Positions 8,901 to 43,600 of a stretch of DNA of 64,000 nt are shown here, one piece after another. The number at the start of each line of letters is the position of its first letter. Within the stretch, counting starts at the first letter, position 1. This DNA is from a virus. The position numbers and the translations under genes were made by a program. Below the pieces are notes generated by a model. The model was not told where the DNA came from and searched no databases. It worked only from the letters and a program-made list of their open reading frames with translations. The stretch covers positions 1 through 64,000 of IMG/VR virus record IMGVR_UViG_3300045975_000444. One strand, given 5' to 3'.

Positions 8901-9706
8901 TCTACGTCGACGTCGACCGCAAGCGCCCGGCGGGCTCGCGCGTCAACCTGATCGGCTCGCTCGACCGCTCGATCTTCGAGGGCGTCCGCGAAGCGAGCCT
9001 CTTCCGGCCGCCCGTCATCCGGGCCTCGGTCGCCTTGGAGCGCGGCCCGATCATCCTCGCCAACGAGGCGCGGCGCCGAGTGCTCGCCAAGCTCGACGAG
9101 ACCATCCCCGCCATCCGCGATCGGATCGCTCGCGAGCTTGAGCGGGTCTCGGCCAAGGCCGCGACCCAGGCGCGCCTCCGCCCGGCCTTTCGGACGGATG
9201 GACATTGCACCGTGCCCGGCATCTACGGGCACGCCATCTCCAACCACGACGGGACCGAAGTGACGGTCCACGTCACCGTCCCGGCGGAAGTCGCGGCCAA
9301 GGTCGCGGCGCTCCTCGCCGAAGAAAGGAGACCCCATTGACCCTCTACATCCTGCGCGACCTGCTCGGCGAATCGATCGTCGTGCCCGTCTGCGAAGCGC
9401 ACGCCTCCGAGATGCCCGCCGTCGGCGGCCGCGTCACGGCGGAGCCGTGCGACGACGACATCCCCTGCGATTTCTGCCGACAGGAGGCCCCCGATGACCC
9501 CTGACCCCGTCGCCCGCGTCAGCGCTGGCGACCGCTGCCAGCTCCACCCCGCAACCGACCGATGGATGATGGGCGATCGCTTCGGCGACGTCGTCTCCGT
9601 CGTGAAGGCCGACCGGCGAAAGCCGTTCGACCGCGTCCGAGTCAAGCTCGATCGGTCGGGCCGGACTCTCACCTTCCCCGCGTGGAACGTCCTCGCGGTC
9701 GACTGA
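5927..9706 (+). other. array of about 14 small early genes, many with CxxC motifs (5927-6223, 6236-6412, 6412-6636, 6650-6970, 6970-7179, 7176-7364, 7379-7582, 7644-7829, 7842-8039, 8127-8348, 8361-8726, 8723-9340, 9337-9504, 9494-9706)
   Basis: Tightly packed ORFs, most with a purine-rich AAGGAG-type RBS or overlapping start/stop codons. Confidence 0.75.
8048..8069 (+). terminator. UUCG hairpin (processing or terminator)
   Basis: CGGGCTCGC-TTCG-GCGAGCCCG, no U-tract. Confidence 0.4.
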
Positions 9707-9771
9707 CCCTTCAACCCACAAACGAGCACGGCCGGGAGCGGGGCGTACCCTCCCGGCCGTGCGATGGAGAA

Positions 9772-11340
9772 ATGCAGACGATGAAAACCCCGAGCGAAGA
9801 GTCCACCGTCGAGCCGTCCGTTAGCACGGCGCTCGACAAGTTCAAGCTTTCACGCGCGACCGGCGTCCCGCTGGTCGCCCTGGAGACAGCCGACGCGCCC
9901 GCGTTCCTGGCGGCCCTCGCCGAGCTGTGCAACGGAGCGACCCCGCTCGTCCGCTGGGACTGCGTCCGCGGCCTTGTCGGCGTGAACGACGCCGGCCGCG
10001 AAGCGGTCCGGGTCGCGCTCGACCCGCTTACCGGCGACAAGATCGTTCAGGCGCCCGATGCGCTGAAGGTCGCCGTCAAGTTCCCGGATCGGTCGATCCT
10101 CTATTTCACCGGACTCGACCGGCTCCTACAGACGAGCGACGCGCGCCTCGCCGCGCTCGTGATCCAGGGCATCGCGAACCTCCGCGACCCCTTCAAGGGC
10201 TCCGGCCGGACGCTCATCATCGCGACGCCCGGCTGGAACGCCCCGACCGAGCTGGGCGGCAACGTGCTCCTCATCCGCGACCCGCTGCCGACCTCGGCCG
10301 AGCTTCAAGCGGTCGTCGACGGCATCGCCAACTCGGCCGCAATCGAGCTGGACGACGCCGCGCGAAAGCGCGCCGTCGACGCGCTCGTCGGCCTGCCGAA
10401 GTTCGACGCCGAGCAAGCGGCGGCCCTCTCCGTCCACCCCGATGGAGACGGGTCGAGCGCACTCGTGCTCGACGAGGCGCTCCTCTGGGAGCGCAAGCGC
10501 GACGCGATCAACGCGTGCCCCGGCCTCTCCGTCTACGAGGGCGCCGAGGACTTCGCCGCGATCGCGGGCGTCGAGAACGCCAAGGGGTTCTTCCGGCGCG
10601 TGATTGACGCCGACCTCTACAACGCGTTCATTTTCGTGGACGAGATCGAGAAGGCCGTGCCCGCCTCGGGCGCGGGCGACACGTCCGGTAGCTCGCAGGA
10701 GATCCTCCGAGGACTCCTGACCGAGCTTCAGGACGCCCCGGCCTACTCCGGGTCGATCTTTCTCGGGCCTCCGGGCGCGGCGAAGAGCGCGCTCGCCAAG
10801 GCCCTCGGCGCCGAGTCCGGAAAGCCCGTGATCGCCTTCGATCTCAACGGCTGCAAGGGCTCGCTGGTCGGCGAGACGGGCCGGAATCTCCGGCGCGCGC
10901 TCGCAACCATCCGCTCGATCTCGGGCGGCAAAGCGTGCTGGATCGCGACCTGTAATGCGATCGACTCGCTCAAGCCCGAGCTACGGCGGCGCTTCAAGCT
11001 CCCCGTCTTCTACTTCGAGGCGCCTGCATTGGAGGAGCAGCAAGCCATCGCTGACCTCTACGAGAAGCGCTTCGGCGTCGACCTCTCGGGCCTGCCGCTC
11101 GGGAAGTTCACCGGCGCCGAGATCCGCGCCGCGGCTGAGCTGGTTCGAGACCTCAAGGTCCCGGCCGCCGAGGCAGCCGGCTACATCGTCCCCGTCGCCG
11201 TGTCGGCGCGGGAAGAACTCGAACGCCTGGAGGCTCAAGCCGACGGGCGCTTCGTCTCCGCCAACCGGCCCGGCGTCTACCGGCGCCCGGTCTACGAGGC
11301 GGCAATGGAAGGAGGAAGGAGATTCAATGCGGCTCTGTAG
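9772..11340 (+). CDS. Ycf46-like AAA+ ATPase with permuted Walker motifs
   Basis: N-domain like Ycf46 (VRWDCVRGL, NLRDPFK); FIFVDEIEK precedes GPPGAAKS; SLVGET pore loop, IATCN sensor-1, ELRRRF, FTGAEI. Confidence 0.85.
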   Translation: MQTMKTPSEESTVEPSVSTALDKFKLSRATGVPLVALETADAPAFLAALAELCNGATPLVRWDCVRGLVGVNDAGREAVRVALDPLTGDKIVQAPDALKVAVKFPDRSILYFTGLDRLLQTSDARLAALVIQGIANLRDPFKGSGRTLIIATPGWNAPTELGGNVLLIRDPLPTSAELQAVVDGIANSAAIELDDAARKRAVDALVGLPKFDAEQAAALSVHPDGDGSSALVLDEALLWERKRDAINACPGLSVYEGAEDFAAIAGVENAKGFFRRVIDADLYNAFIFVDEIEKAVPASGAGDTSGSSQEILRGLLTELQDAPAYSGSIFLGPPGAAKSALAKALGAESGKPVIAFDLNGCKGSLVGETGRNLRRALATIRSISGGKACWIATCNAIDSLKPELRRRFKLPVFYFEAPALEEQQAIADLYEKRFGVDLSGLPLGKFTGAEIRAAAELVRDLKVPAAEAAGYIVPVAVSAREELERLEAQADGRFVSANRPGVYRRPVYEAAMEGGRRFNAAL

Positions 11341-11869
11341 GCGATGCGATCGCCTACTCGCCGAGGCGGCCTTCACTCGCGGCCAGACATTGTGCCGCGA
11401 GTGTCGCGCCGCCTACACGCGAGCCTATCGGCTCCGCCCGGAAGTTCGCGCGCGGCGCAAGCTGGAGCGCGAACGGGCGAGCCCTGAATCAAAGGAGCGC
11501 AAGCGCCGATACGATGCTGCCTGGCGAAAGCGCTCGCCGAAGTACGAAGCGGCCGTCAAACGCTACTGGCAATCGGAGAAGGGGAAGGCGGCGCGCAAGC
11601 GCTTCTTCTCTTCGCCGAAGGGCAAGGCGGCGCGGTCTCGCGGGAACGCCCGCGAGCGCGCTGTCCACCCTGACCGCGCGCGCGCCCGGATCGCCGTCAT
11701 CAAGGCGGTCCAGCGCGGCAAGCTGACCCGGCCAGACGCCTGCGAACGATGCGGCGTCGCCTGTCAGCCCGAGGGTCACCATCACCATGGATACGCAGCG
11801 CGGCTGGACGTCGTCTGGCTCTGCAAGCGCTGCCACAACGAGGCAACTCAGAAGGAACGGAGGTCCTAA
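11327..11869 (+). CDS. HNH-like Zn-finger endonuclease
   Basis: CxxC pairs; AVQRGKLTRPDACERCG...EGHH..GY..LDVVWLCKRCH. Confidence 0.75.
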   Translation: MRLCRRCDRLLAEAAFTRGQTLCRECRAAYTRAYRLRPEVRARRKLERERASPESKERKRRYDAAWRKRSPKYEAAVKRYWQSEKGKAARKRFFSSPKGKAARSRGNARERAVHPDRARARIAVIKAVQRGKLTRPDACERCGVACQPEGHHHHGYAARLDVVWLCKRCHNEATQKERRS

Positions 11870-12223
11870 ATGCCCTGCTGGGAAATTCAGACGACCAGCG
11901 TTTCGCTGGAGGCGAGCGACCGCGCGCTTCTGCGCGACGCGCTCATGAAGCTCGCGGGCGAGGGCCGGCTCTCCGGGCTCGTCACGCAAGGCGAGACCAT
12001 CGCCGGCTACGTCGGGGCGTCGGGCGTGAAGATCGACCTCGCGAGCGGACAGCTCACGGTCAACGCCTGGCAGCAGACCGGCGGGCCGAGCGAGGCCGCG
12101 CGCGTCCGCAACGTGATCCAGAAGGCCTACGCGCACGAGGTCGTGCACGCGGCCGCCAACGAGTTCGGGCTCACCCTGGAGCCCGGCGAGACCGCCGACG
12201 AGTACGTGCTCGTCGGCCTTTGA
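11870..12223 (+). CDS. DUF1257/Ycf35-like protein
   Basis: DRALLRDAL...IQKAYAHEVVHAAANEFG; context next to a Ycf46-like ATPase. Confidence 0.6.
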   Translation: MPCWEIQTTSVSLEASDRALLRDALMKLAGEGRLSGLVTQGETIAGYVGASGVKIDLASGQLTVNAWQQTGGPSEAARVRNVIQKAYAHEVVHAAANEFGLTLEPGETADEYVLVGL

Positions 12224-12235
12224 TGGAGAAAGCAA

Positions 12236-12463
12236 GTGAAAGACGCCTTCAAGCTCCGCATCCGCGAGGATGGCTCCTCGGTCGTGACGTCCGAGGGCTT
12301 CTCCGGCGAAAAGCATCTCGACGCCGAACAGGTGCGAGCATGGCTCGCCAAGAAGCTCGGCGGCGAGTCGAGCACGGTCCGAAACACCGAAGCTCACAAC
12401 CATGCTCACGACGGAGAGCACGAGCACGACCATGACCATGATCACGAGGAGCACAGCCACTAG
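12236..12463 (+). CDS. DUF2997-like protein with His-rich tail
   Basis: LRIREDGSSVVTSEGFSG...LAKKLG; tail HNHAHDGEHEHDHDHDHEEHSH. Confidence 0.6.
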   Translation: MKDAFKLRIREDGSSVVTSEGFSGEKHLDAEQVRAWLAKKLGGESSTVRNTEAHNHAHDGEHEHDHDHDHEEHSH

Positions 12464-13033: not shown

Positions 13034-13972
13034 ATGGAGAACCAGAACGGGCGACCCTCGCCCGAGCAGATCAGAAACGCCCTCGTCTTCGTACGCGTCT
13101 CGGCCCACGGTTGGGGATGCAATCGCAAGCTCGCGGAAGACGAGTACGAGACCGAGGGCTCGAAGGAGCTGACCGCGGCGTCCAAGAACTTGACCAAGGA
13201 CGACCGCTACAAGGCGATGCGCCAGCTCGTCCGCGCAACCGACCGCTGGCTCGAAGAGCGCGAGGTCGGGGTCGGCTTCACCGGGCCAGGCGTGCGCGCC
13301 ATCCCGGTCGGCTTGGTCGAGGAGGTCGTCGCCGAGCTGGAGGCGCGGCGAGTTGCCTACTTCGAGGCGGTCCGCGAGTTCATCCGTGCCCTCCCCGAGA
13401 TCAAGGCCAAGGCCGCGCTCCCCAAGGAGGACGGCGGCTTGGGTCCGCTCTACAGCGAGAGCGACTGGCCGGCCGCCGAGGAGATCCAGAAGCGCTACGA
13501 GTTCGACTGGTCGATCTTCGACCAGACCGTGCCCGCCCAGCGCTCGGGCCTCTCCTCGGCGGTGATCGACCGCGAGGCCCAAAAGGCGCGTCAGAAGTGG
13601 GTTGACGCCGCCGGCTCGATCGAGACCGGGCTCTACACCGAGCTTGGAAACTTGGTCGCGCGCCTGGCCGAGCGCCTGACCGACGACAAGGAGACCGGCA
13701 AGGCGCGGGTCTTCCACGAGTCGACGGTCGAGAAGCTCCGGAGCTTCCTGGAGCTTCTGCCCGACCGGAACGTGACCGGGTCGGGCCAGCTCGCCCAAGT
13801 CGCCAAGCGCTGCGAGGCGCTCCTCTCGGGGACCGACGCGCGAGCGATCCGCGACTCCGACTCGCTTCGCGGCAAGCTCCGCGAGGGCTTCCAGGCTGTC
13901 GCCAAGGAGCTGGACGAGACCTCGTCCACCCGGTCGCGACAGTTCAACTTCAACCAGGCCTCCGGCTTCTAG
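13034..13972 (+). CDS. DUF3150-like helical protein
   Basis: VSAHGWGCNRKL...ASKNL...GVRAIP...DWPAAEEIQKRYEF; strong RBS. Confidence 0.55.
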   Translation: MENQNGRPSPEQIRNALVFVRVSAHGWGCNRKLAEDEYETEGSKELTAASKNLTKDDRYKAMRQLVRATDRWLEEREVGVGFTGPGVRAIPVGLVEEVVAELEARRVAYFEAVREFIRALPEIKAKAALPKEDGGLGPLYSESDWPAAEEIQKRYEFDWSIFDQTVPAQRSGLSSAVIDREAQKARQKWVDAAGSIETGLYTELGNLVARLAERLTDDKETGKARVFHESTVEKLRSFLELLPDRNVTGSGQLAQVAKRCEALLSGTDARAIRDSDSLRGKLREGFQAVAKELDETSSTRSRQFNFNQASGF

Positions 13973-14071: not shown

Positions 14072-14470
14072 ATGGAGACCAGGAGCCGAACCGTCGCGCT
14101 CGCGCTCGTCGCGAGCCTACTCGCCTCGGGCTGCGTCGCCGCCCGCCACGTGCCGATCGTCGACCTCCAGGCGAGCCCCGCCGCCGCCGACGGCCGCGAC
14201 TTCAACCAGGACCTCTTCGAGTGCCAGAACTACGCCGAGTCGATCGACCCGGCCGGCCAGGCGCTGGCGGGCGCGGTCGCGGGCGCGCTCTTCAACGCGG
14301 CCCTCGGCGCGGCGCTCGGCGGCATCGTCGGCGACGCCGGCCTCGGCGCGGCCCTTGGAGCGACGTCGGGCGGCATGTACGGTGCCGCGGGCGGCGCCGC
14401 CCAGGCCGAGGCCCGGCGCACCCAGATCGTCAACAACTGCATGCACGGGAGGGGCTGGAATGTCCTCTAG
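14072..14470 (+). CDS. glycine-zipper lipoprotein
   Basis: Lipobox LASGC; GAVAGA..GAALGG..GAALGA; NCMHGRGW. Confidence 0.75.
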   Translation: METRSRTVALALVASLLASGCVAARHVPIVDLQASPAAADGRDFNQDLFECQNYAESIDPAGQALAGAVAGALFNAALGAALGGIVGDAGLGAALGATSGGMYGAAGGAAQAEARRTQIVNNCMHGRGWNVL

Positions 14471-15121: not shown

Positions 15122-16597
15122 ATGCAGAGACTCACCATGATCGCAGCGTGCCTGATCGCATCAACGGCGCTCGCCCAGACGCCGGGGCCAACCCCCGACT
15201 CGACGCCGTCCCCCGAGCCCACCATGGAGCCGACCCCCGATCCGACCGCCACCCCGGCCGAGGGCTTCGGCTACGAGCAGCTCAGAGACGAGCAGCGCGA
15301 CCAGAGCGACTACCGAGGCGGGCCGCGCATCTGGTACGGGCAGGCGACCGACTGGCCCGCTGCCGCCGACCTCGTCTGGTACGACCCGATCGCCAACACG
15401 ACGAGCCTCATGTGCTCGGGGACAGTGATCGCGCCGCGCTGGTACTTGACCGCCGCCCACTGCGTCGCGCCCGAGATCATCGGGCTGGGTATCCTCAACC
15501 AGCGCGTCCGCGTCCGGACCCACATCGGTGGAGTGTCGTCACAGCACATCGTCCTCGGCCCGGTCTACCGGCACCCGGTCTACGACCCCAACTCCTGGCC
15601 GGGCGTGGAATACGACTACGCACTCCTCTACTTGATGACGCCGGTCGCCGCCGCACCGGCGACTCTATGGTCGAGGGCGCTGACCAGCGACCTGCAAGGA
15701 ATGCCGCCGCCGCCGGTCGGGGGCGTGCTGAAGACCCAGATCTTCGGCTATGGTGGCACCGAGTTTGGCCCGCCGCCACCTGGGCAAGTGCGCTCCACGA
15801 TCGTCGAGCGGTGCCACCCGACGGAGGTCGGCGCGATGGTCCTCGACATCCTCGGGTTCTACGGCGAGTTCGCGACCCTCGTCGCCGGCTGCGACCTCGG
15901 CGCCGTCGGCTACGGAGCGGGCGTTGACTACGGCGACTCGGGCGGCGGCTGGATCACGAGCGACCTCGACTCCGACGTGGAGGACGAGGAGTTGATCGGC
16001 GTGACGCAGGCGTTTTTGTTCCGAGGCCTCTCGTTCGCGGGCCCCGTGCCAAAGGCGACGCGCTGGATCATCGACACCATCAACGGCGCGAACGGGCGCG
16101 GCTGCCCTGCGACGCCCCTTCTGGGTGGAGTCTGCCAGCCGGGCAATGCGCGCGTGCTGGCGTCGGCCGCGAAGCTCGGCTTCCGCTGGTACGACTCCGA
16201 CACGGCGATGCCGAACGTCTCGATCGGCGCCGGCTGGATGCTCTGCGCGTACTCGGCCGGGACGCTCATCTTGGAGGTGGCGCCGCCGCCGGAGCTGCGC
16301 TGCCGCGGCGGTCGCCCGTGCTGGCGGGTCTCCACGAGCACGCGCTACGCTTCGGCCGCGACGTGGAGCGGCTATGGGTCGATGGACGGCGCCCGCAAGT
16401 TCCAGTTCGCGCAGGGGCTCCCGACACGCCCCGCCGGCCGCGTCACGGTGTCGGTCAGCCCAGCCGTGATGCCACCAGGGAACTCGCTCCGCGTGCAAGC
16501 CCACATGAGCGGCGGCTGCGTCGACGCCTACTTCGCAAACAACCTGGAGACGCGCCGCCCCGACACGCGCTTCCGCGGGTCGGTCAGCGCCAACTAG
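15122..16597 (+). CDS. secreted trypsin-like (S1) serine protease with Cys-containing C-terminal domain
   Basis: Signal peptide ending ALA; Pro/Thr linker; CSGTVIAPRWYLTAAHC, DYALL, GDSGG catalytic triad. Confidence 0.9.
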   Translation: MQRLTMIAACLIASTALAQTPGPTPDSTPSPEPTMEPTPDPTATPAEGFGYEQLRDEQRDQSDYRGGPRIWYGQATDWPAAADLVWYDPIANTTSLMCSGTVIAPRWYLTAAHCVAPEIIGLGILNQRVRVRTHIGGVSSQHIVLGPVYRHPVYDPNSWPGVEYDYALLYLMTPVAAAPATLWSRALTSDLQGMPPPPVGGVLKTQIFGYGGTEFGPPPPGQVRSTIVERCHPTEVGAMVLDILGFYGEFATLVAGCDLGAVGYGAGVDYGDSGGGWITSDLDSDVEDEELIGVTQAFLFRGLSFAGPVPKATRWIIDTINGANGRGCPATPLLGGVCQPGNARVLASAAKLGFRWYDSDTAMPNVSIGAGWMLCAYSAGTLILEVAPPPELRCRGGRPCWRVSTSTRYASAATWSGYGSMDGARKFQFAQGLPTRPAGRVTVSVSPAVMPPGNSLRVQAHMSGGCVDAYFANNLETRRPDTRFRGSVSAN

Positions 16598-30376: not shown

Positions 30377-31402
30377 TTACGTCAGCTTGCAGATCATGGT
30401 CGGCTGCACGACGCCGACTCCGAAGCGGGCCATCGCCCGGATCGCCACGCCCCCCGCCGTCCAGGCCTCGGGGAACTCGCCGGTCGCCTCGAAGGCGGGC
30501 GCCGTGCGAAGCCCGACGACCGTCGCCCGCTTGAACGCCCCGACGACCCCCTTGACGGTGCCGAGCCAGTCCTGGGCGACCACTACGGCCGGGCGGCCGC
30601 CGATCGAGCCGCCGATGGTCGGCAGCTCCGCCAACTGCGAGAGCGAGTCGAGCGCGCCGATCGTCGCCGGGATGATCGCCTGAGAGGTCTTCATGCTGTC
30701 GAAGGCCTCGACCGAGAGCACCCAGACGACCGTCGTGATGGCGGCCGGGTTGAGCGCTTCGAGCGCCGACTTGGGCGAGGTCGCCGCCGTCGCCGAAGCG
30801 CCGGCCTTCTTGATCACGCCGTCGATCTGATCGGTCCCGGCGGTGTCGCCTTCGAGGTAGACGCGATCGATCTCATCGAGCAGCGCATCCAGGAAGATCT
30901 GCCCGAGCTGGGCGACACCGTCGCCCGAGAGCGGCCCCGAGATATCCTCGACGAGTTCGCCCGAGGCGATCGACCACACGACCGCCGTCTTGGCCTGGAT
31001 CTCGACCGGGGTGGCTTCCCAGACCGGGTCGGAGATCGCCGCGGCGTCCCCCTCGGAGGTCTGCCAGCGCACCGTCGGGAGCCCGGTCGGCGTGAGCGAC
31101 GCGGCGACCACCTTCGGCCCGGCCATCGGCAGCACGCGGGCGACCTGGAAGGCGAGCGAGTGCCGCCTGGCATACGTCCAGGTCGCCGGGAAGACGTGCG
31201 TGCCCGCCGGGACCGCCGTCGTATCGGCGCGAAAGCGCTCGGTCTCGACCGACGGGGGATCGGCGTCGGCCGAGAGCCCGAGCGCCGCTCGCCGAAACGC
31301 CTGACCCGCCGCGTAGCAGGCGACCCGATCGAAGCGATCGCCCTCGAAGGGCTCCGCCGAGATGACCGCCGCCTCCAGCCGTTCGAGAAGGTCGTTCGTC
31401 AT
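30377..31402 (-). CDS. second HK97-fold major-capsid-like protein
   Basis: IQAKT...ASGELVED...LGQIFLDAL...RVYLEGD...IGGRP...VAIRAMARFG..VVQP aligns with the capsid at 60115-61488. Confidence 0.85.
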   Translation of the reverse strand: MTNDLLERLEAAVISAEPFEGDRFDRVACYAAGQAFRRAALGLSADADPPSVETERFRADTTAVPAGTHVFPATWTYARRHSLAFQVARVLPMAGPKVVAASLTPTGLPTVRWQTSEGDAAAISDPVWEATPVEIQAKTAVVWSIASGELVEDISGPLSGDGVAQLGQIFLDALLDEIDRVYLEGDTAGTDQIDGVIKKAGASATAATSPKSALEALNPAAITTVVWVLSVEAFDSMKTSQAIIPATIGALDSLSQLAELPTIGGSIGGRPAVVVAQDWLGTVKGVVGAFKRATVVGLRTAPAFEATGEFPEAWTAGGVAIRAMARFGVGVVQPTMICKLT

Positions 31403-33163: not shown

Positions 33164-33442
33164 TCAGGTCGGGTCGAGCTGGGCGCGCTGGCGGATCGCC
33201 GGGAGGCCGACGAAGCGAAGGCCCAGCTCCAGGTCGGCGAGCATCGGGAAGCCCTCGAAGAGGGATCGCGCGACGACCTCCTCGGTGCCGTCGGGGTTCC
33301 AGATGATCGCCTCGTCCGGGTTCACACCGGCAGTCACAAAGAAAGCGGTGTAGTCCAGCTCGGCCGCGTCCAGCTCGGCGCGCGCCTCCTGGCAAAGCTC
33401 GCAGCCGTGTTGCACGTAGAGGTAGCGCTCCATGGAGATCAT
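33164..33442 (-). CDS. glutaredoxin/NrdH-like protein
   Basis: LYVQHGCELCQEARAELD...GFPML; coupled to the tail-tip stop. Confidence 0.7.
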   Translation of the reverse strand: MISMERYLYVQHGCELCQEARAELDAAELDYTAFFVTAGVNPDEAIIWNPDGTEEVVARSLFEGFPMLADLELGLRFVGLPAIRQRAQLDPT

Positions 33443-36400
33443 GCCTTGACGCAAAATCTCAGCGCGTACACCGGCGGCATGTTCAGCTCGCCGCCCGACG
33501 GGCCGGTCGTCCCCGAGAACGCCGCGAGCGTGCCCGCGAAGGTCGAGACCCCCGACATGGTGAGGGCGTGGCGATGGACGTACTCGACCGGGTCCTGGCC
33601 GTACAGCGGGTAGGGCATGCCTCCGGCGACACCCGGCGTGTTGACGCCGCCGAGATAGGGCGGCCCGAGATGGGCCGAGGGCGCCGTCGTGTAGGTCGAC
33701 GGGACCGCCCCGCCGTGATTGTGCGAGGCCGAGTGCGCGTCGAACGTCGTCGCGTGGGCGTGCGTCGTCGCCATGACCGATAGCCCCTGGCCCGCGGCGG
33801 CGCCCTTGAGGAGTCGCTTGGAGGCCGCCCCGTACTCGACCCAGCCGGGCGGGCAGAGGGCGCCGTCGACGAAGCCACCGAGGCCCGTGGCGACCTGCTG
33901 TGTCCCGGCGCTCGCCTTGTGGAAGGCGAGCGAGATCGAGTCGGGCGATGGAGCCGAGGCCGCGCTGATCGTCCCCCCGGCCGCCGTCGCCGTCTGCGTC
34001 GAGGCGTTCGGGATCTGGACGTCGGCGGTGTGGATGTGGTCGTCGGTCGACATCGAGATGTCGTTAGTGCCGAGCGGGACGTCGCGATGGAGCGTCGTCC
34101 CGGCGGCCAGGCCGGTGATGTCCACCGAGGCGCCGATCGAGTGCGCGTGCGTCTCGTTGTGCTGGTGGCTCGGCACGGTGCCGCCGTGGCTGTGCGTCGC
34201 CGGCACGGTCTCGGTCGTCCCCGCCACCCCGGAGAATGCGGTCACCGTCGCGCCCGACGGGTATGACACCCCGGTGACGTCACCCTGGTAGTTCAGCACG
34301 TCGACAGTGACGGTCGAGCCGACCAGGCCTGTCAGGACCCCGTAGTAGCTCGACCCGCCGCTTGTGATCTTCAGGATCTGGTTGCCATGGAGGTTGGTCG
34401 TCGCGGCAACGGTAAAGCTCGCCGTGGCTGTCCCCGGCGTGTGCGCGCCAGTGGTCGTCGTCGCGACGGCGCCGATCCCGGTCTCGACCCGTGGCACCTG
34501 GCTATCAAGCGTGGTCGCGCGCGTGTAGCCCCCCGGTGCCGTCGCCGACTCCGAGAAGAAGGCCAGGTTCACCGGGACCTGCTCGACCGTGTGCGCGGTC
34601 TTCTTGCAGAGCCGGACCCGCAGGCTGGTCACCGCGTTGCCCGAGGCGATGGTCGAGATCGCCGAGTTCGGCTGGCTCGATACTCCCGAGCCGGTCATCG
34701 CTCCGGTCGCCCACGACCCGGACGGGTTGGTGTGGGTGTGGTCCTGGCGCGCGACTGGCGTGAAAGCCGGCCCGATGACCGCGTTGGTCGCAAGCTCGTC
34801 GCCCGCCGGCACCGCGCCGATCCCGATCGAGCTGATCGTGTGCGTGTGTGCCTGGACCGTGTGCGTGTGGGCGAGCGAGTGCGAGTGCCGCCACGCCCCG
34901 GCCGTCTGGCCCGGCACAAAGCCGCCGCCCGAGTAGGCCCCGGTCAGGTAGTAGTTCTGCGGCGCCGTGTAGGGTTGCCAGTCGGTCGGGCAGGTGCCGT
35001 CGGTCGAGATCAGGATGAGCCCGAGCGGGACCTTCTGCGGCGCGATCTCCAGGCTGTCGGAGATGAGCGGCGTCCGGGTCTCCGCCTCGATCTCGACCGT
35101 CCGCATGCTCTTCTGGACGGCGACCCGGCGGATCGAGTAGATCGGCATCTCGTCGGAGCCAATGACCTTGCGGAAGGCCGAGTCGTCGAGCAGGACGTCG
35201 CCGACCGCCGGACGCCGCCAGCCGATCAGCTCGGTCGTCCGGAGCCGGAAGCGCGGCTGCGAGAAGTAGCGCACGACCGCCGCGGCGATGCCCGCGGCCG
35301 AGTCGGAATCGGCCACGACCGTCTCGGTCCCGAAGTCGGCCCGCCCCGAGCCCGGCGAGGCGAACTTCGCGTAGCTCGTCGCCGCCCCGGCGAGGTCGCC
35401 GTCGGTCAAGAGCACGGCCGGGTTCAGGGCCGCCAGTGGGTTGACCGACACCTGGACGCGCGCCTGGAAGTAGGCCTCCTCGTCCTCCTCCGAGAGTGTC
35501 TCGGTCCGCCGGTTCCGCGACACGACCGCGACCGGCCAGATCTCGAAGTTGTCGACCAGAATGGAGAGCGAGGCCGTATCGTTGAAGGCCGGGAAGAGGC
35601 CGATCGTCGTCGTCCCGACCTCGTCCTCGTCTAGCTCCATCCAATGAACGAGCCGCTTCCATGCCGTGTTGGTAAGCTCGAAGGCGGGCGAGATCTTGGG
35701 GTCGTAGCCGTCGGAAGGCCGCACGACCGCGACCCGGACCTTCATGCCGATGCCGGTCTTGAGCGCGGCCAAGAGCGAGGCCGCGATCGCGAAGCCCGGC
35801 TTGCGCATGGATACCGTCTGGAAGAGCAGCGCGTAGGCGTTGCCGCCGTTGCTGATCTCTACGGCCCGCGTGCCCTCGTAGGTCGGCGAGGTCGTGACCG
35901 CCGAGGTCAAGGCGTTGTACCCTACCCAAGGCCAGATGTCGGTCCCCGACGACTCGAAGCCGGGGTTGGTCGCGAGCTGCTGCGCCGAGAAGTCGAGCAC
36001 GCCCGCGTTGACCCGCCCCGCCGGCAGCTCGCTCCGGATGCCGAAGGCCTGCGCGAGGGTCTGCGCGACCGCGTCGCCGATCGAGATCGTCTCGTTGAAG
36101 TAGACGCCGACCTTGGGCGGCGCCGGGATGGTCGCGCCACCCGAGAGGCGGCGGCGCCAGATACGGTCGTAGTCGATGAACGATTGCTCGTCGATCTCGC
36201 CGGCCGGGACGTTCCCCATGCGCATGATCGCGCGCGCAATCTCGCCAGGGAACCTGAGCCCACGCGACGCCGAATCGCCGGGGATGGAGCGGGTACCCCA
36301 GACCTCGGCGTAGACGACGTCGGGCGGGTTGTTCGGGTCGGCGAACCACGTGTTGACGATGCCGAGCCCGGCGTTGTTTGGGTCCTTGGTGATGCCCACC

Positions 36401-38748
36401 TGTGACGGCGCGTTGACCTGCTCGGCGGTGAGGAAGACGTTGCCGAAGACCTCGATGCCGAAAGCGATCGCCGTCACCCGGTAGATCGAGGTATTGGCGG
36501 CGCCGGGTGCCCAGTTGGTCAGGTAGGCGGCCACGCGCCCCCAGCCGAAGACGATCGGCACCAGCACGCCCGTTCGCGCGATCCCTGCCTGGTAGATCGT
36601 CCAGGTCTGCTCGGTGAGCGGCCGGCGGAGGTCGATCAAGGACGAGTAGAGCCGGATGGTCAGCTCCTCGTCGAGGACGTGGCCGCCGTTGGTCGCGACG
36701 AGCTGGACCTGATGCTGCGCTTCGCGAAGGTCCGAGCGCGGCCCGCGCCGGACGATCGTGCGGAGCCCGTCGACCCGGCGCTTGCGGATGTCGGGGTCGA
36801 AATGGCCGTCGACCGCCGCGAGCGCGATCTCGCCCATGGTCGCTGACGAGGTCGCCCCGGTGCCGTCGGCCGAGACCTCCTGCGAGTAGCTCGGTTCCGA
36901 GACGAGCCGGGCGCGATAGGGCTGCGGCGCATCCCACCCGTAGAAGTCCCGCTCGATGAGCGTCACCGGGTCGGTCGCGGCATGGAGCCAGAGGCAGACG
37001 AGCAGCACCTGATTGGCGTCCGAGGGCGACTGGCCGGCGCCGAGCCGGATGCGGACCGACGCGGCCTCCTCGTCGTGCGAATACTGACTCGACCCCGTGA
37101 GCATCCCGTAGTGCGAGACGCGCGTCATCTCGGTGCCGTTCCAGATGATGCGCGAGATGCGCGAGCCCATCGGCAGCGAGTGTGCGAAGCTGTCCGGGTC
37201 GACGTGCGCCGACCAGCGCCGGAACCAGTAGGCGGTCTCGACCTTGGCCGTCACGACCTGCTCGGCATCGGCCGGCGGCATCTCGTCGATCTGGAGCGCG
37301 ACGTAGAGCGGCAACTGTGCGGTGACCCCGATCGCAGTCGACCCGGCCCCCGCGATCGCGTTCCACGCGTCCAAGTAGATGGACGACGGGCCGGCCGCGC
37401 GCTTGGTGCGATGGAAGAAGCACGCGGTCGTGAATTGCCCCGTGACCGGCTCTCTATAGTGCCAGCCGCGGGGCGTGCCGTAGTAGCCCGGCGGATCGGC
37501 CTGGAAGCGCGGCCGGACGTTCACCCCTTGCGACCCGGTCGGCACGTTGTTCGCAACGAAGGAGACGAACTCCAGATAGCGCCCGGTAACCGGGAGCGTC
37601 AGCGTGCCCGAGGCGATCTGTGTCGCGCTGTCGCCGACGCTCGTCACCGTCTGGGTGAGCGCCGCCGAGACCGCGCGCATGCCCGGCGGCAGCAGGAACA
37701 TCGCGAGGAACCAGTTGTCGACTTTCGGGGTCGCACCGTAGCCGGTGAAGCGGATGCGAACCTTCCAGCCCGCCGTCAGGCTCAGGTAATGGACGGCGCC
37801 GACCGGCCGCCGATCGCCGTCGGCGCAGGCCTGGTATTGCCACGCCCAGAACGATTGCCGCGTGCCGCCGCTGTCGACGACTTCGAGAAAGGTCTGATTG
37901 TGCCCCGCACCGCCGTCGGCGCCCTCGAACCAGTTGGCGACGACCATCCAGTTGTCGGTCGACGGCACGGTCATCTCGGTGATCGTGTACTCGGTGCCGA
38001 GGGCCGCCGCAGTGAAGCCCGTTCCCGAGGCGTAGGCAAAGAAAAAAGACTGGTCGACCCGGATGGCGGCGATCCTGCCGTTGTTCGCGGTCGCTGCGTT
38101 CGCCGCCGCCGAGGCCCCCGGCATCCCCTGGCGGAGGAAGATCGAGCGCGTGTCGCCGCCCCGGATTATGAGTGAGGTCGCGCCGAAGTAGTTACTCGCT
38201 CGCTGGTTCGCGATCGCCACTCTTGCCTGCTGGAGAGGCGGGCGCGCGTCCAAGTGATGAGGACTCCCCGGTCGGCCGTTCACCTCAAGCACCTGCTCGA
38301 CCTGACCCGTCGCGCCGAAGGATACCATCGTCCCCTGAGCGAGGATCAGGTACCTGTAGTTTCCAGGTGGCGCTTCCGAGAGGTCGATCGGCAGTTCGAC
38401 CGTGTTGAAGCCGCGCAAGTAGAGTAGGCCCGCGCCGGCAGGGATGCTCCATCCGTCGGCGAGCTGCGGGTTCGAGTCGAAGTCGTTGAACGGCAGGAAG
38501 AAGGTCTGCTCGGCCGCGGGGTTGTTCGCGGTTATCCGACCGACAAGGGCTATTCCTCCGTAGCTGACGTAGACCTGATAGTCGGCGCCGCCGATGAAGT
38601 ATTGCGACTGCCCGACACCGAGCTGAAGCCACGCCCCCTGAGCGCCGATGACGACGGCATTGAGGATCGTGAACGGCCCCCCGCGCGTGCGGTAGGACTG
38701 CGCGAGCAAGTTGTCGCGGCAGGCGTAGAGGAGCGGCGGGACCGGCAT
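33439..38748 (-). CDS. tail tip/hub protein fused to collar and HxH fibre repeats
   Basis: Likely start MPVPPLLY coupled to the upstream TGA; VPIVFG hub motif, carbohydrate-binding-like NPGFE insert, C-terminal HxH tracts. Confidence 0.8.
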   Translation of the reverse strand: MPVPPLLYACRDNLLAQSYRTRGGPFTILNAVVIGAQGAWLQLGVGQSQYFIGGADYQVYVSYGGIALVGRITANNPAAEQTFFLPFNDFDSNPQLADGWSIPAGAGLLYLRGFNTVELPIDLSEAPPGNYRYLILAQGTMVSFGATGQVEQVLEVNGRPGSPHHLDARPPLQQARVAIANQRASNYFGATSLIIRGGDTRSIFLRQGMPGASAAANAATANNGRIAAIRVDQSFFFAYASGTGFTAAALGTEYTITEMTVPSTDNWMVVANWFEGADGGAGHNQTFLEVVDSGGTRQSFWAWQYQACADGDRRPVGAVHYLSLTAGWKVRIRFTGYGATPKVDNWFLAMFLLPPGMRAVSAALTQTVTSVGDSATQIASGTLTLPVTGRYLEFVSFVANNVPTGSQGVNVRPRFQADPPGYYGTPRGWHYREPVTGQFTTACFFHRTKRAAGPSSIYLDAWNAIAGAGSTAIGVTAQLPLYVALQIDEMPPADAEQVVTAKVETAYWFRRWSAHVDPDSFAHSLPMGSRISRIIWNGTEMTRVSHYGMLTGSSQYSHDEEAASVRIRLGAGQSPSDANQVLLVCLWLHAATDPVTLIERDFYGWDAPQPYRARLVSEPSYSQEVSADGTGATSSATMGEIALAAVDGHFDPDIRKRRVDGLRTIVRRGPRSDLREAQHQVQLVATNGGHVLDEELTIRLYSSLIDLRRPLTEQTWTIYQAGIARTGVLVPIVFGWGRVAAYLTNWAPGAANTSIYRVTAIAFGIEVFGNVFLTAEQVNAPSQVGITKDPNNAGLGIVNTWFADPNNPPDVVYAEVWGTRSIPGDSASRGLRFPGEIARAIMRMGNVPAGEIDEQSFIDYDRIWRRRLSGGATIPAPPKVGVYFNETISIGDAVAQTLAQAFGIRSELPAGRVNAGVLDFSAQQLATNPGFESSGTDIWPWVGYNALTSAVTTSPTYEGTRAVEISNGGNAYALLFQTVSMRKPGFAIAASLLAALKTGIGMKVRVAVVRPSDGYDPKISPAFELTNTAWKRLVHWMELDEDEVGTTTIGLFPAFNDTASLSILVDNFEIWPVAVVSRNRRTETLSEEDEEAYFQARVQVSVNPLAALNPAVLLTDGDLAGAATSYAKFASPGSGRADFGTETVVADSDSAAGIAAAVVRYFSQPRFRLRTTELIGWRRPAVGDVLLDDSAFRKVIGSDEMPIYSIRRVAVQKSMRTVEIEAETRTPLISDSLEIAPQKVPLGLILISTDGTCPTDWQPYTAPQNYYLTGAYSGGGFVPGQTAGAWRHSHSLAHTHTVQAHTHTISSIGIGAVPAGDELATNAVIGPAFTPVARQDHTHTNPSGSWATGAMTGSGVSSQPNSAISTIASGNAVTSLRVRLCKKTAHTVEQVPVNLAFFSESATAPGGYTRATTLDSQVPRVETGIGAVATTTTGAHTPGTATASFTVAATTNLHGNQILKITSGGSSYYGVLTGLVGSTVTVDVLNYQGDVTGVSYPSGATVTAFSGVAGTTETVPATHSHGGTVPSHQHNETHAHSIGASVDITGLAAGTTLHRDVPLGTNDISMSTDDHIHTADVQIPNASTQTATAAGGTISAASAPSPDSISLAFHKASAGTQQVATGLGGFVDGALCPPGWVEYGAASKRLLKGAAAGQGLSVMATTHAHATTFDAHSASHNHGGAVPSTYTTAPSAHLGPPYLGGVNTPGVAGGMPYPLYGQDPVEYVHRHALTMSGVSTFAGTLAAFSGTTGPSGGELNMPPVYALRFCVKA

Positions 38749-39683
38749 CAGGGCACCGCCTCGTCGATCGAGAAGCCATAGCGCCCCGTGAGCGTCGTCC
38801 TGTGGTCGAAAGTCGCGCGGTCGCCGAGGTAGCCGTAGATCGCGCCGGGGGTCTTGTAGTCGAGCGCGACCGAGCCGATCGCCGGGACGAACGCATAGGG
38901 ATCGACGATGATCGGCCGCCCGTCGGTCTGCTCGATCGCCGACCGGAACTGCTCCATGTCGTCGAGCGAGTCGAGTGTCACGACCTGATCGGTCGCATTG
39001 CGCGCCGCCACGCGTGATGACGTGAACTGGAGCTTCCGGATGCGCCGGTGCCTTACCCAGGCGCGCTCCCCGGAATCGAGCTGGACCGTGTCCGACACGC
39101 TCTCGGTCATGGTCCGCCAGCGCGCCTCGACGACCTGCTCGCGGCGCATGCCGAGCCAGAGCACGCCCAGCTCGACCCAGTCGCCCGCGTTCGCGAGGTA
39201 GAAGACAACCGCCCAGAAGCGCTTGAGCGGCATGCCCTGAACCACACCACCACCGCTCGGCGCCGTCCGATTCTGGAGGTGAGAGACGATCACCGAGCCG
39301 CGGTCCTTGTCGATCGCCGGGACGATGTAGTCGATCCGGTCGGTCGCCCAGTCGAGCGCGTTCATGCCGACGATGGTGGCGTTGACCGGCGACGACTCCA
39401 CGCCCGCGGCCGAGACGTGACGGCAGTCGATGAATGCGACCGTATCGAAGATCGGGAAGTACCCGGCCTCGACCGCGGCCAAGTCGAAGGCGACGTAGTA
39501 GTAGCCGGAGGCCGTCGCGACGGCGCGCCAACGCTCGCTCCGGTCGGGATTCAAGAGCTGCGTCGCCGGATAGCGCGGATGGAAATTCGAGCCCGCGACG
39601 ACCGCCATGCCCTTGAGGAGGAGGATGTTCTCAAGCGAGAACACCGTCGCGGCGGGCGAGTAGAACTGGACGTTGTCGGCCAC
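38748..39683 (-). CDS. distal-tail-like protein, paralogue 2
   Basis: After the tape measure gene; similar to 39693-40637. Confidence 0.65.
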   Translation of the reverse strand: MADNVQFYSPAATVFSLENILLLKGMAVVAGSNFHPRYPATQLLNPDRSERWRAVATASGYYYVAFDLAAVEAGYFPIFDTVAFIDCRHVSAAGVESSPVNATIVGMNALDWATDRIDYIVPAIDKDRGSVIVSHLQNRTAPSGGGVVQGMPLKRFWAVVFYLANAGDWVELGVLWLGMRREQVVEARWRTMTESVSDTVQLDSGERAWVRHRRIRKLQFTSSRVAARNATDQVVTLDSLDDMEQFRSAIEQTDGRPIIVDPYAFVPAIGSVALDYKTPGAIYGYLGDRATFDHRTTLTGRYGFSIDEAVP

Positions 39684-40646: not shown

Positions 40647-43600
40647 TTAGGCCGCCGGTCCCGTGGTGACGGCGCCCGCTCGCTGCCGCCGTGTGTTCGA
40701 CTTCTCGACCTGGCGCGACACCTGGACGCCGTCGAGATAGGTCGTCGCGGTGACGCCGTCGTCGAGAAGGCGCGCCAGGAGGATGGTCATCTGGCGCATG
40801 ATCGCGTTCAACTCCGCCTGCTCCTCGGGCGAGATCTTCCGCGTGTCGGGTCCGGCCGGCACGAGCGACTCGAAGGCGAGCTGGGCCGTCGCGCCCAGGA
40901 TGTCGGCCTTGACCTTGCCCAGCTCGACCATCTCGGTTTCGAGCTGCGCGGTCGCGTCGGACACGTCCTCGGCCGCATCGGCCGCCCGCTCGGCTGCGTC
41001 GGCGGTCGTGTCGGCCGACTCGGCCACGTAGCCGAGGTCCGACGCGAAGCTCTTGGTCGTGCCGGCGAACTCGGCGAAGAGCGGCAAGAGCGCCTCGGTC
41101 TCGTCGTGGATGTAGCCGAGGATGATGCGCGTCTCCGCGATGCCCTGCTCGCGGGTCTTCTTGCCCTCGGCGACCTGCTTCCAGACGAGGTCCAGGTAGG
41201 CGAGAAATGGAGCGAGCGCGCCCTGGATCAGGGCGTCGGCGATGAATGCCTGGATCAGCGCGTCGAGCACGTGCTCGTAGATGCCCTTGCGGACGTTGTT
41301 CAGGAACTCCTCGGGCGTCTTGGAGTCGCGGAACGCCGCGGCGATGCCACCCTTGACGCCCTCGGGTAGTGCCTCCTTGGTCTCCTTGGCGATGTCGACA
41401 CCGAAGAGCTTGGCGAGCTTCTGGAAGCCGGGCTGCGCGTACTCGGCCAGGGTGACGAAGTCGTCGCCCATCCGGTCGGCGATCTTCGAGAGGGTCTTTC
41501 CCTCGGCGATCGAGATGGTGCCGTCCTCCATCGCCTTGGTGTAGGCCGCCTCCCACTCCTCCTGGTACTTCTTCATCACCGGCGAGAGGATCAGGGCATT
41601 GATCATGCCCTCGACCACACCCTTGAACGTCGCCTCGTTGAAGGCCTTCCTGAGATCCTCCTTGGTGCCGCCCCGCCAGAAGTCCTCGATTGCGCCGGAG
41701 AGGCCGCCGACGATTCCCTCGGAGGTCGCGTCGCCGAGGTCGACGCCGAAGTCCTTGGCAATGTCCTTGACGATCGGCTTTAGCTCCTTGGCGTCCTGCT
41801 TCATCTGGGCGCCGAACTTCTTGGCCTCGGTCGTGATCTCCTGCATCTCCTCGGGCGTGATGACCCCGTCGGCCTTGGCCTTCTTGAACAGCTCGGAGAT
41901 CTTCTCGACCATCTTCTCGACTTCGGGCGCGAAGATGGCGGCGATCAGCCCGTCGATCAGCCCCTGTCCGGTCGCTTCCGAGATCGCCTCGCTCAGCTCC
42001 TGCTCGGTCCCGCCCGCGAAGAAGTCGGCGATCGCCGCGTCGTAGTTGAACGAGACCTTGAACTCCTTCTCCTCGTCTCCCTCCTCGTCCTCCTCGGGCT
42101 TGGGCGCGTGCGGCGAGAGCGGCACGGTGTAGCCGTCGCGTGGCCCGCCGGGGGAGCTGGTCCGCGGCGGCGGGCTCGCGACGCCACGACCCGAGGCGCC
42201 TCCGCTGGTCCGGCCCGAGCGGCTCGACACGGTCTCAAGACCGAGCATCGATGCCGTCGACTCCAGGTCGCTCTCGCCCCCACCCGCCCTGCGAATGCTC
42301 GTCCGCCGCCGGACGATCCCGCCACCGCCACCGCCACCGCCAGTGCTGAAGTCGATGGAGGCGAGGCCGGCGGCGATGCCCTGGAGCGCCGCGGCCAGGG
42401 CGCCGCCCGCGTCGGCGATCGCTTGCGCGCCGGCCGCGCCGGCATCCTCGAAGCCCGGCCCGACGCTTTCGAGCCCGGCGGTCAGGGCCGCGGTGATCTG
42501 GGCGAGCGGGCTCATGCCCTGGCCGAGCTTCCCGACCGAGTCGGCGATCGACTTGGCCAGCTCCGGGCTGACCTTCAAGAGCTGCTCGAATGCCAGGACG
42601 AACGAGTCGGCGTCCTGCGGCGAGATGCCACCGACCCGCGTCAGAGTCTCGCGGAGCTTCTCGGCCGCGCCCGGCTCCATCTCCGCCATGTCGTCCATGG
42701 CGTCCTTGATCTTCGCAGCACCCGTCGGGTCGATGTCGCTGATGTCTTCGAGCGTCTCGCGGAAATTCTTTGCCGCGCCGGGGTCGATGCCGGCGAGCGC
42801 CTGCGTGATCTGCTCGCCGATGCCGGTCTTGAAGCCCTCGCGCAGCTCTTCGAGCGAGCGCCGGACGTTCTCGCCCGTGCCCGGCTCGATCTGCTCCAGG
42901 TCGCCCAAGCCTTCCTTCACGCGGCGGGCGAAGCGCGTCAAGCCCTCGCCGACCTGCTCGATCGTGCGGACGAGCGGCTCGCGCCGGGTCGGCTCCTCGC
43001 GCGCGACCGCGATGCCTTCGAGGCCAAGCTCCTCCTTCTCGCGCCGGGCGCGCTCGCGGCGGCGCTCCTCCAGGCGACGCTCCCGCTGGCGCTCCTCTCG
43101 GGTCGGGAGATCGCGCTGCTCGCGCTCGCGCTGCTCGTCGCGCTCCTTCCTGCGCTTCTCGGCCGGAGTGAGCGGCGGCCCGAGCCCGGCGTCCCTGCCG
43201 ATGCCGATCAGGTCCTCAAGGAAGGGCAGGACGAACTCGACCGCCTTGCCACCCTGCTCGACGATGATCGTCGCCAGCTCGCGCAAGCCCTCGCGCTCAG
43301 CCGGCGTGATCTCCTTGCCGCCCGGACCCTCCGGTGAGAGAGCGTCCTTCACGGCGATGTCCCAGAAGGCCAGGAATGGTGCCAGGAAGCCCTGCACGAC
43401 GACCGCGTTGATGAGCGCGTCGGCCATCCCGCCGATGATCGCCTCGGTTAGGCCCGCCTTGATGTCCTCGCCAAGCGTGACGCTGATCTCGCCTAACGGC
43501 TTCTTCCCGACGATCCCTTCGGTCAGCGCCTTCGAGATCGGGCCGGAGAGGATGGCGCGCTCTTGCGCCTTGGCGTTCTCGACCGCAGCCGTGATCTCCG

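Follow-up and report, generated by a model that had tools for sequence, protein, structure and literature searches.

In the active domain of a canonical AAA+ ATPase, the chain runs from helix α0 through a block formed by strand β1 with Walker A, α1, β2, the pore loop and α2 (block A), then through a block formed by β3 with Walker B and α3 (block B), to β4 with sensor 1. We wanted to know whether a viral gene in which Walker B is encoded upstream of Walker A truly departs from this order. The gene is located at positions 9772..11340 (+) of a stretch of 64,000 nucleotides (nt), referred to here as the window, which comprises positions 1 to 64,000 of the IMG/VR viral record IMGVR_UViG_3300045975_000444 (83,295 bases, estimated to be 93% complete); soil metagenome contigs were used for comparison. 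An earlier note made from the DNA letters had described the gene product as an AAA+ ATPase with an internal segment swap, maintained rather than decaying. Our analyses point to a phage ATPase of the classical AAA clade, related to the family phrog_8638, that very likely consists of an inactive AAA-like N-terminal domain and an active C-terminal domain in which two neighbouring segments have been exchanged, such that its chain runs from α0 through β3/Walker B and α3, then from β1 through α2, and on to β4.

The coding sequence specifies a protein of 522 amino acids (aa) without internal stops and ends with a TAG stop codon at 11338-11340. An alternative start is present at 9781, and a further in-frame ATG upstream, at 9562, would overlap a small upstream open reading frame (ORF; 9494-9706). 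The residue features of classical AAA proteins are all found, namely a Walker A P-loop, a Walker B of the hhhhDE type, a polar sensor-1 residue and arginine fingers downstream; the feature that the protein lacks is the canonical chain order, with Walker A before Walker B. Walker B (FIFVDEIEK) is encoded at 10627-10653 (residues 286-294) and precedes Walker A (GPPGAAKS; 10765-10788, residues 332-339), which is followed by the pore-loop-like SLVG (10861-10872), the sensor 1 motif ATCN (10945-10956) and the arginine pair (10987-10992). These motifs are where the earlier note had placed them, except that FLGPP starts at 10759, 6 nt away from the position given there. Its observation that Walker A has AK in place of GK also holds (A337-K338 in this protein), although this substitution varies within the lineage and is separate from the swap.

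The reversed order was recovered by three kinds of alignment. When the protein was scanned piecewise with the Pfam AAA profile (PF00004), residues 281-322 matched profile positions 57-95 (the Walker B strand and α3), residues 329-382 matched positions 2-55 (β1 through α2), and residues 387-409 matched positions 101-124 (sensor 1 and the arginine fingers). The protein scores 51.4 bits against this profile (cut-off, 21.2 bits), split over three stretches. The local matches to Pfam AAA therefore appear in reversed order, as the earlier note had expected of such an alignment. A phmmer search against solved structures aligned residues 284-333 with residues 380-429, and residues 326-377 with residues 321-372, of the D2 domain of VAT (5vc7). 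Since these two reversed local alignments fall inside one AAA domain, the block order is not due to a chance motif. Finally, profiles were built from the family alignment (residues 255-470), either with the native column order or with blocks 281-323 and 324-385 exchanged, and were aligned with Escherichia coli FtsH. The native-order profile matched FtsH in four non-collinear pieces (profile order 4-25, 71-123, 26-54 and 129-205), whereas the block-exchanged profile gave one collinear match of 67.5 bits, in which profile positions 6-205 of 217 correspond to FtsH 150-368.

These alignments, together with phrog_8638, a PHROG profile of 568 positions that is Ycf46-like and has the canonical block order, allowed the protein to be divided into segments. 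The N-terminal degenerate AAA-like domain (9820..10521 (+), residues ~17-250) was delimited by AlphaFold2 secondary structure, superposition and its match to phrog_8638 positions 16-288. It is followed by the N-loop and helix α0 of the active AAA domain (10522..10611 (+), residues 251-280), which has the motif F..I.G.EN.K and aligns with FtsH 148-169. Block B, moved forward (10612..10740 (+), residues 281-323), contains β3/Walker B and helix α3, and matches Pfam AAA 57-95, phrog_8638 365-405, FtsH 240-268 and VAT 380-429. Block A, moved backward (10741..10926 (+), residues 324-385), contains β1, Walker A, α1, β2, SLVG and α2, and matches Pfam AAA 2-55, phrog_8638 307-363 and FtsH 186-238. The unmoved continuation (10927..11025 (+), residues 386-418), with β4/sensor 1, the arginine fingers R406 and R407, and β5, matches Pfam AAA 101-124 and phrog_8638 from position 406 onwards. 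The helical lid and a conserved C-terminal extension (11026..11337 (+)), which carry the motifs WTGAEI and IVPVA...GRF.SA, respectively, continue the match to phrog_8638 up to position 547. The breakpoints of the swap are sharp, and all catalytic residues are retained.

Is this order restricted to the window? Word-indexed and exhaustive searches returned hundreds of ~500-aa proteins that are collinear with the query from residue ~20 to ~505 at 35-47% identity, and all 150 of the database matches listed are single collinear matches to the query. A phmmer search gave 914 protein clusters (50% identity) at E<1e-30. With the same query, canonical-order relatives score at most 68 bits and sampled swapped members at least 255 bits; because canonical relatives never reach the scores of swapped members, the 914 clusters are essentially all swapped. 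We then considered 80 viral loci and 80 loci from bacterial genomes that are related to the swapped ATPase, the latter being mostly metagenome-assembled genomes (MAGs) of Acidobacteriota, Armatimonadota, Planctomycetota, Myxococcota and Nitrospirota. The swapped order is present in all 160 loci (144 by motif scan and the remaining 16 by alignment), so the search for homologues with the same swap, which the earlier note had called for, had a clear outcome. In these loci, Walker B and Walker A are separated by 33-39 residues, and Walker A and sensor 1 by 52-58 residues. The cultured podovirus Tunturiibacter phage Tunturi_3 also encodes a member (gp103), and it was the only phage that matched in a tblastn search of 50,697 phage records, even at an E-value of 0.05.

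Residues D290, E291, K294, G332, G335, K338, G367, T393, N395 and R407 are invariant in 75 sequences sharing 34-75% identity, and R406 is kept in at least 90% of them. PELRRR is present in 110 of the 144 loci. The residue preceding the Walker A Lys is more variable: Gly is kept in 34 of the 144, and Ala, Ser or Cys is found in the other 110 (76%). Some members of the swapped family contain inteins, which generally favour indispensable sites. The intein of P0177, which has an HNH endonuclease, is located inside the Walker A loop, and those of P0142 and P0178, one of which has a LAGLIDADG endonuclease, are located just after sensor 1. Judged by sequence, these positions would fit an indispensable active site in the homologues. 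A 147-member cluster of intein-bearing proteins in the Atlas is 72% viral.

The closest relatives with canonical block order are the proteins related to phrog_8638. In total, the query scores 109 bits against this profile, non-collinearly, versus 324-393 bits for three canonical members in bacterial genomes. A search of five bacterial genomes with the profile yielded, among others, the canonical proteins L168 (519 aa) and L169 (486 aa); the latter falls in the cluster of P0267/P0268, named 'AAA family ATPase'. A hidden Markov model (HMM) of the swapped family covers both proteins over their full length in four pieces, with 198 and 150 bits, respectively, and only blocks A and B are exchanged. 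In Pfam, the canonical relatives give a single uninterrupted AAA stretch (1-130) at 84-108 bits, plus AAA_lid_3. When viral contigs were scanned with the canonical proteins, 80 loci were obtained, 78 of which have the canonical order and none the swapped order. The gene of L168 (1504-3063 (-), in a Nitrospira MAG) shows one in-frame TAG in its genome-scan match, yet its 519-aa ORF is open; this TAG is probably located upstream of the true start.

The swapped and the phrog_8638/Ycf46-like proteins (COG0464, SpoVK/Ycf46/Vps4) are thus full-length homologues of ~500 aa, and the comparison with Ycf46 made in the earlier note appears reasonable on indirect grounds. They have in common the degenerate N-domain, the lid, the C-terminal extension and the motifs DEIEK, T-W-x-Q-[DE], AT[AC]N, LPPEL and FFxDLP. 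They differ in the reversed Walker A and Walker B blocks, in the residue before the Walker A Lys, mostly Ala in the swapped family, and in the residues after sensor 1, which are Arg-Arg-Arg-Phe in the swapped family and Arg-Lys-Gly-Arg-Phe-Asp in the other. An unrooted tree was made of 37 swapped sequences, drawn randomly from 432 and put back in canonical block order, and 36 canonical ones. A single branch, with a value of 100 in the Shimodaira-Hasegawa-like approximate likelihood ratio test (SH-aLRT), parts the 37 from the 36, showing that the swap had one origin. We take the canonical order to be ancestral because every other AAA+ protein has it. Most simply, the A-B segment would have been duplicated in tandem, after which the first A and the last B were lost.

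Does the rearranged chain still form an AAA domain? Using the family alignment, AlphaFold2 predicted one with confidence (mean predicted local distance difference test (pLDDT) of 92.4; predicted template modelling score of 0.86), which is the result of the structure check that the earlier note had suggested. The predicted elements follow each other as α0 (268-279), β3 (285-289), α3 (307-321), β1 (326-331), α1 (338-349), β2 (353-356), α2 (368-384) and β4 (388-394), and the model contains the α-β-α nucleotide-binding fold and the helical lid. Predicted residues 244-498 superpose on Vps4, spastin, the D2 domain of p97, fidgetin-like 1 and katanin (Z 14.7-16.6; root-mean-square deviation (rmsd) 2.5-3.5 Å), with ~190-212 residues aligned in these single-domain superpositions. 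The shortfall of ~45 residues would be the loss expected of a sequential aligner when a 43-residue block is displaced.

The established AAA+ fold has a parallel sheet with strand order 5-1-4-3-2. By topology reasoning from this fold, the ATPase would keep this ordinary sheet, with all helices in their usual place and three new connections, α0 to β3, α3 to β1 and α2 to β4. All three rerouted loops would be located at the sheet end distal to the ATP and would each be displaced by one or two strand positions; the crossovers would all remain right-handed, leaving the helices on their usual face. Mean-field covariation analysis of 422 sequences (~270 effective), which is independent of AlphaFold2, yielded coupled residue pairs. 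The strongest, 285-384, bridges the ancestral junction between α2 and β3; others connect β3 with β4 (292-392) and α3 with α2 (310-370 and 318-381), and residue 267 in the N-loop forms a pair with residue 337, the Ala/Gly that precedes the Walker A Lys. The scores for 282/283 with 347-350 and for 298 with 349-352 were dropped, as they form stripes typical of alignment or subfamily effects.

Could the order have arisen in the assembly? A chimeric or mis-joined metagenome contig might have put the Walker B segment upstream of Walker A, given that the window is a metagenome-derived viral contig and that run X2, which has the whole stretch in one contig, may be its source sample. We regard this as scarcely credible. 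Mis-assembly, which the earlier note had named as a possible refutation, was looked for and not encountered: an 839-nt contig of run X8 spans 10384-11222 with zero mismatches, contigs of run X7 span 9756-10685 and 10656-11109 without a mismatch, and independent soil-metagenome contigs thus cross all three new junctions. All 160 independent loci, whether on viral contigs or in bacterial MAGs, and cultured Tunturi_3 have the identical order, which argues against an artefact as well. Contigs of the RNA-library run X10 match parts of the gene, with DNA carry-over being possible. The other objection raised at the outset was that Walker B might be the tail of a degenerate first AAA domain, so that nothing is permuted and the second domain is devoid of a Walker B. 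Such a domain does exist, and predicted residues 17-494 superpose on the D1+D2 tandems of Cdc48, p97 and Rix7 (Z ~15-18.7; rmsd 5-6 Å). In the AlphaFold2 model, however, the N-domain is complete in itself, with five strands (34-38, 59-63, 109-113, 147-152 and 166-169) in canonical order and a lid of its own (175-248). It contains no Walker or other nucleotide motifs and gave no Pfam AAA match in the piecewise scan, it resembles in structure the N-domains of 500-aa AAA proteins in the Atlas, including those of a cyanobacterial cluster of 509-aa AAA proteins, and it is matched by phrog_8638 with 36.5 bits (genome-scan score; E 4e-11). The same N-domain is present in canonical relatives, where positions 5-253 of the swapped-family HMM match it with 56-83 bits, and is followed there by one ordinary AAA domain, onto which the blocks of the query map once each with no remainder. 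Moreover, block B follows α0 of the second domain, which has no other Walker B; the ~52 residues between Walker A and sensor 1 are too few to contain one; and covariation ties residues 285 and 292 of the block to residues 384 and 392 of that domain. An unpermuted protein is therefore very unlikely.

Granted that the swap is real, the protein might still be a scaffold that binds nucleotide or nothing at all and neither hydrolyses ATP nor threads substrates. The non-Gly residue before the Walker A Lys in 76% of members and a Leu in place of the aromatic pore-loop residue would fit this possibility. MoxR/RavA-type AAA+ ATPases, on the other hand, are active although Ala precedes their Walker A Lys. 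Throughout the 34-75% identity range, the Walker A Lys, the Walker B Asp-Glu, the sensor-1 Asn and the trans-acting Arg never vary, which is hard to explain without catalysis, and the covariation between residues 337 and 267 suggests a maintained nucleotide pocket; we thus consider a pseudo-enzyme unlikely. It is also conceivable that the β3-α3 block is exchanged between subunits, each ATP site being built from two chains, as the new connectivity puts the block beside the inter-domain linker and the structure model is that of a monomer. This model is confident through all three junctions (block pLDDT 81-97), and the linkers are short (α0/β3 ~5, α3/β1 ~4 and α2/β4 ~3 residues), which favours intramolecular packing and makes a domain-swapped oligomer most improbable. 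The shared order, the invariant catalytic residues, the confident fold, the canonical sister family and the junction-spanning contigs together support a maintained rewiring, and not decay, in agreement with the earlier note.

Some points nevertheless weigh against the exchanged-segment ATPase as we describe it. The direction from canonical to swapped is derived from the canonical order of all other AAA+ proteins, the tree being unrooted, and the strand order of the sheet was deduced by combining superposition statistics and covariation with topology reasoning rather than read directly from the model. The covariation draws on ~270 effective sequences, and several of its high-scoring stripes look like alignment or subfamily artefacts. 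The enzymatic role of all family members is a prediction from sequence and model; the last Walker A Gly is replaced by Ala, Ser or Cys in most of them (110/144), and Leu is found where classical pore loops carry an aromatic residue, substitutions that could mean altered activity. Likewise, the role of the partner proteins described below is deduced from gene neighbourhood.

With these points in mind, the ATPase is predicted to form a hexameric ring that remodels or unfolds proteins at the expense of ATP. Its working residues would be the Walker A K338, the Walker B E291, N395 in sensor 1 and, at the pore loop, L-V-G, with R406 and R407 contributed by the neighbouring subunit. The ATPase may cooperate with the DUF1257-, DUF2997- and DUF3150-like proteins encoded in the same module, or act on them; these would serve as substrates or adaptors. 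The setting would be the non-structural gene region of temperate soil phages; the phage genes of the window include those for a terminase, ParB, an integrase, RusA, Erf, an exonuclease, and head and tail proteins.

The partner genes were identified by counting neighbours on the same strand within 6 kb of the ATPase gene in 81 swapped viral loci (the window included) and 80 canonical viral loci. A DUF3150-like gene (~310 aa) is present in 77/81 swapped versus 4/80 canonical loci, a DUF2997-like gene (~65 aa) in 71/81 versus 36/80, a DUF1257-like gene (100-160 aa) in 67/81 versus 27/80, and all three in 66/81 versus 4/80. As phage copies of both families adjoin DUF1257 and DUF2997 genes, the association of the ATPase with these two predates the swap, whereas the link with DUF3150 is largely specific to the swapped lineage. 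In the window, the DUF1257-like protein (117 aa) is encoded at 11870..12223 (+) and matches the neighbour-family HMM with an E-value of 4e-12; its relatives reach Pfam DUF1257, while the protein itself is below Pfam significance. The DUF2997-like protein (75 aa; 12236..12463 (+), neighbour-family HMM E 2e-6) is also below Pfam significance, and members of its own cluster (L009 and L014) have no Pfam match; the sister neighbour cluster L083_7 (e.g., L016 and L021) reaches Pfam DUF2997 with an E-value of 5e-13. The DUF3150-like protein (312 aa; 13034..13972 (+)), the most constant partner of the swapped lineage, scores 26.5 bits against Pfam DUF3150 (cut-off, 24.9 bits). Its AlphaFold2 model (pLDDT 92) had no match in the PDB with Foldseek at E<=0.001, and a wide VIA search found only generic helical bundles with Z<10.

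Tunturi_3 carries the complete module: besides the swapped ATPase gp103, gp102 is DUF1257-like, gp101 is DUF2997-like and gp96 is DUF3150-like. Gp96 (L001 15609-16643) was deposited as an 'HNH endonuclease', probably a mis-naming, as it matches the DUF3150-like HMM at 298 bits. The paper on Tunturi_3 does not discuss the module genes (PMC11924767). In cyanobacteria, Ycf46 is reported to be encoded in a stress-induced three-gene operon and to interact with KaiC (PMC13683863), and the DUF2997 and DUF1257 (Ycf35) genes form a pair that adjoins fed7 (PMC4284462). We found no relevant description of the function of DUF3150 or of DUF1257/DUF2997 in the open-access literature.

Besides the phrog_8638-like proteins, the best sequence and structure matches of the swapped ATPase are classical AAA proteins (Cdc48/p97/VAT, Rix7/NVL, Vps4, spastin, katanin, fidgetin-like 1 and FtsH). 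It shares with them the α0 N-loop of the 'DIGG' type, an x-hydrophobic-Gly pore-like loop, sensor 1, a double Arg finger and the lid. Unlike these canonical-order proteins, it has β3-α3 before β1 and an N-domain without nucleotide motifs. The two-tier layout resembles that of tandem AAA proteins such as Cdc48/p97 with an inactive D1, but the ATPase is not a sequence member of the tandem family. A precedent for reordered motifs in P-loop NTPases, in a different branch of the superfamily, is provided by the circularly permuted GTPases YlqF/YjeQ, which have the order G4-G5-G1-G2-G3, probably arose through duplication and deletion, and retain fold and activity. Their permutation is circular over the whole domain, whereas in the swapped ATPase only an internal segment is affected and the ends of the domain remain in place.

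Some AAA ATPases of the IetA/SgiA/IteA type, from the same broad COG0464 group, are paired with a protease and act in plasmid or island stability or as an anti-phage pair (PMC10954446). They show no full-length similarity to the swapped ATPase, and the NCBIfam IteA match is weak (E 0.002) and covers the P-loop only. A trypsin-like gene is located 3.8 kb downstream of the ATPase gene, but it is not a conserved neighbour and such a pairing was rejected. The product of this gene (15122-16597 (+)), 491 aa long, begins with what looks like a signal peptide and contains a trypsin domain (Pfam E 5e-12). The gene is preceded by a glycine-zipper lipoprotein-like ORF (14072-14470); the two are unusual phage cargo, with no relative found in the other loci.

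Some other features of the window deserve mention. An ORF of ~180 aa (11327-11869 (+)) starts 14 nt before the ATPase stop, after the ribosome-binding site GGAGGAAGGAG. Its product is Cys-rich with a His-rich, HNH-looking motif at its C-terminus; it has no significant Pfam match and is not conserved as a neighbour. A GC-rich inverted repeat (ggccgggag ... ctcccggcc, 9730-9758) immediately precedes the ATPase start; located between the upstream ORF and the ATPase gene, it could serve as a terminator or as a regulatory hairpin. The structural region contains two giant ORFs: that at 40647-49163 (-) encodes 2838 aa and has no Pfam match, and that at 33439-39531 (-) encodes 2030 aa and shows only a sub-threshold match to CBM_4_9 (20.6 bits; cut-off, 25.9 bits). 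Two genes, 30377-31402 (-) and 60115-61488 (-), both match the major-head-protein family phrog_10, with E-values of ~1e-10 each.

A phmmer search of PDB sequences revealed no solved member of the swapped family, the best matches being generic AAA proteins (E 4.5e-8), and we found no description of a permuted AAA+ core in the open-access literature; the swap has apparently not been described before. Profile methods see a fragment of the domain only. At NCBI, full-length swapped members are deposited as 'hypothetical protein', and fragments are named 'SpoVK/Ycf46/Vps4 family' by their sources. These fragmentary matches and labels explain why a common phage module went unnoticed. A 490-aa phage protein has been reported with a SpoVK/Ycf46/Vps4 match on residues 318-378 only, a footprint that a swapped member would also give.

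In classical AAA proteins, the end of helix α3 carries the inter-subunit signalling loop. In the swapped family, α3 leads into the P-loop strand and the pore-loop helix α2 leads into the sensor-1 strand; therefore, the wiring that connects the substrate grip, the neighbouring subunit and the ATP site may be unlike that of any AAA+ motor studied. Tentatively, and with about as much doubt as confidence, if not slightly more, we propose that this is the first natural AAA+ family with an internally, non-circularly permuted core, long fixed in a very large phage lineage, and that its allosteric wiring may differ. The classification and mechanistic models of AAA+ proteins assume a single chain topology of the core. 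The swapped family is a natural experiment that separates features set by the three-dimensional arrangement from those set by chain connectivity, and would be a clean case in which an internal segment was permuted through duplication and deletion. Through the module, Ycf46-like ATPases, themselves enigmatic, are connected with DUF1257 (Ycf35-like), DUF2997 and DUF3150 proteins, and as the cultured phage Tunturi_3 carries the whole of it, its function can be tested at the bench.

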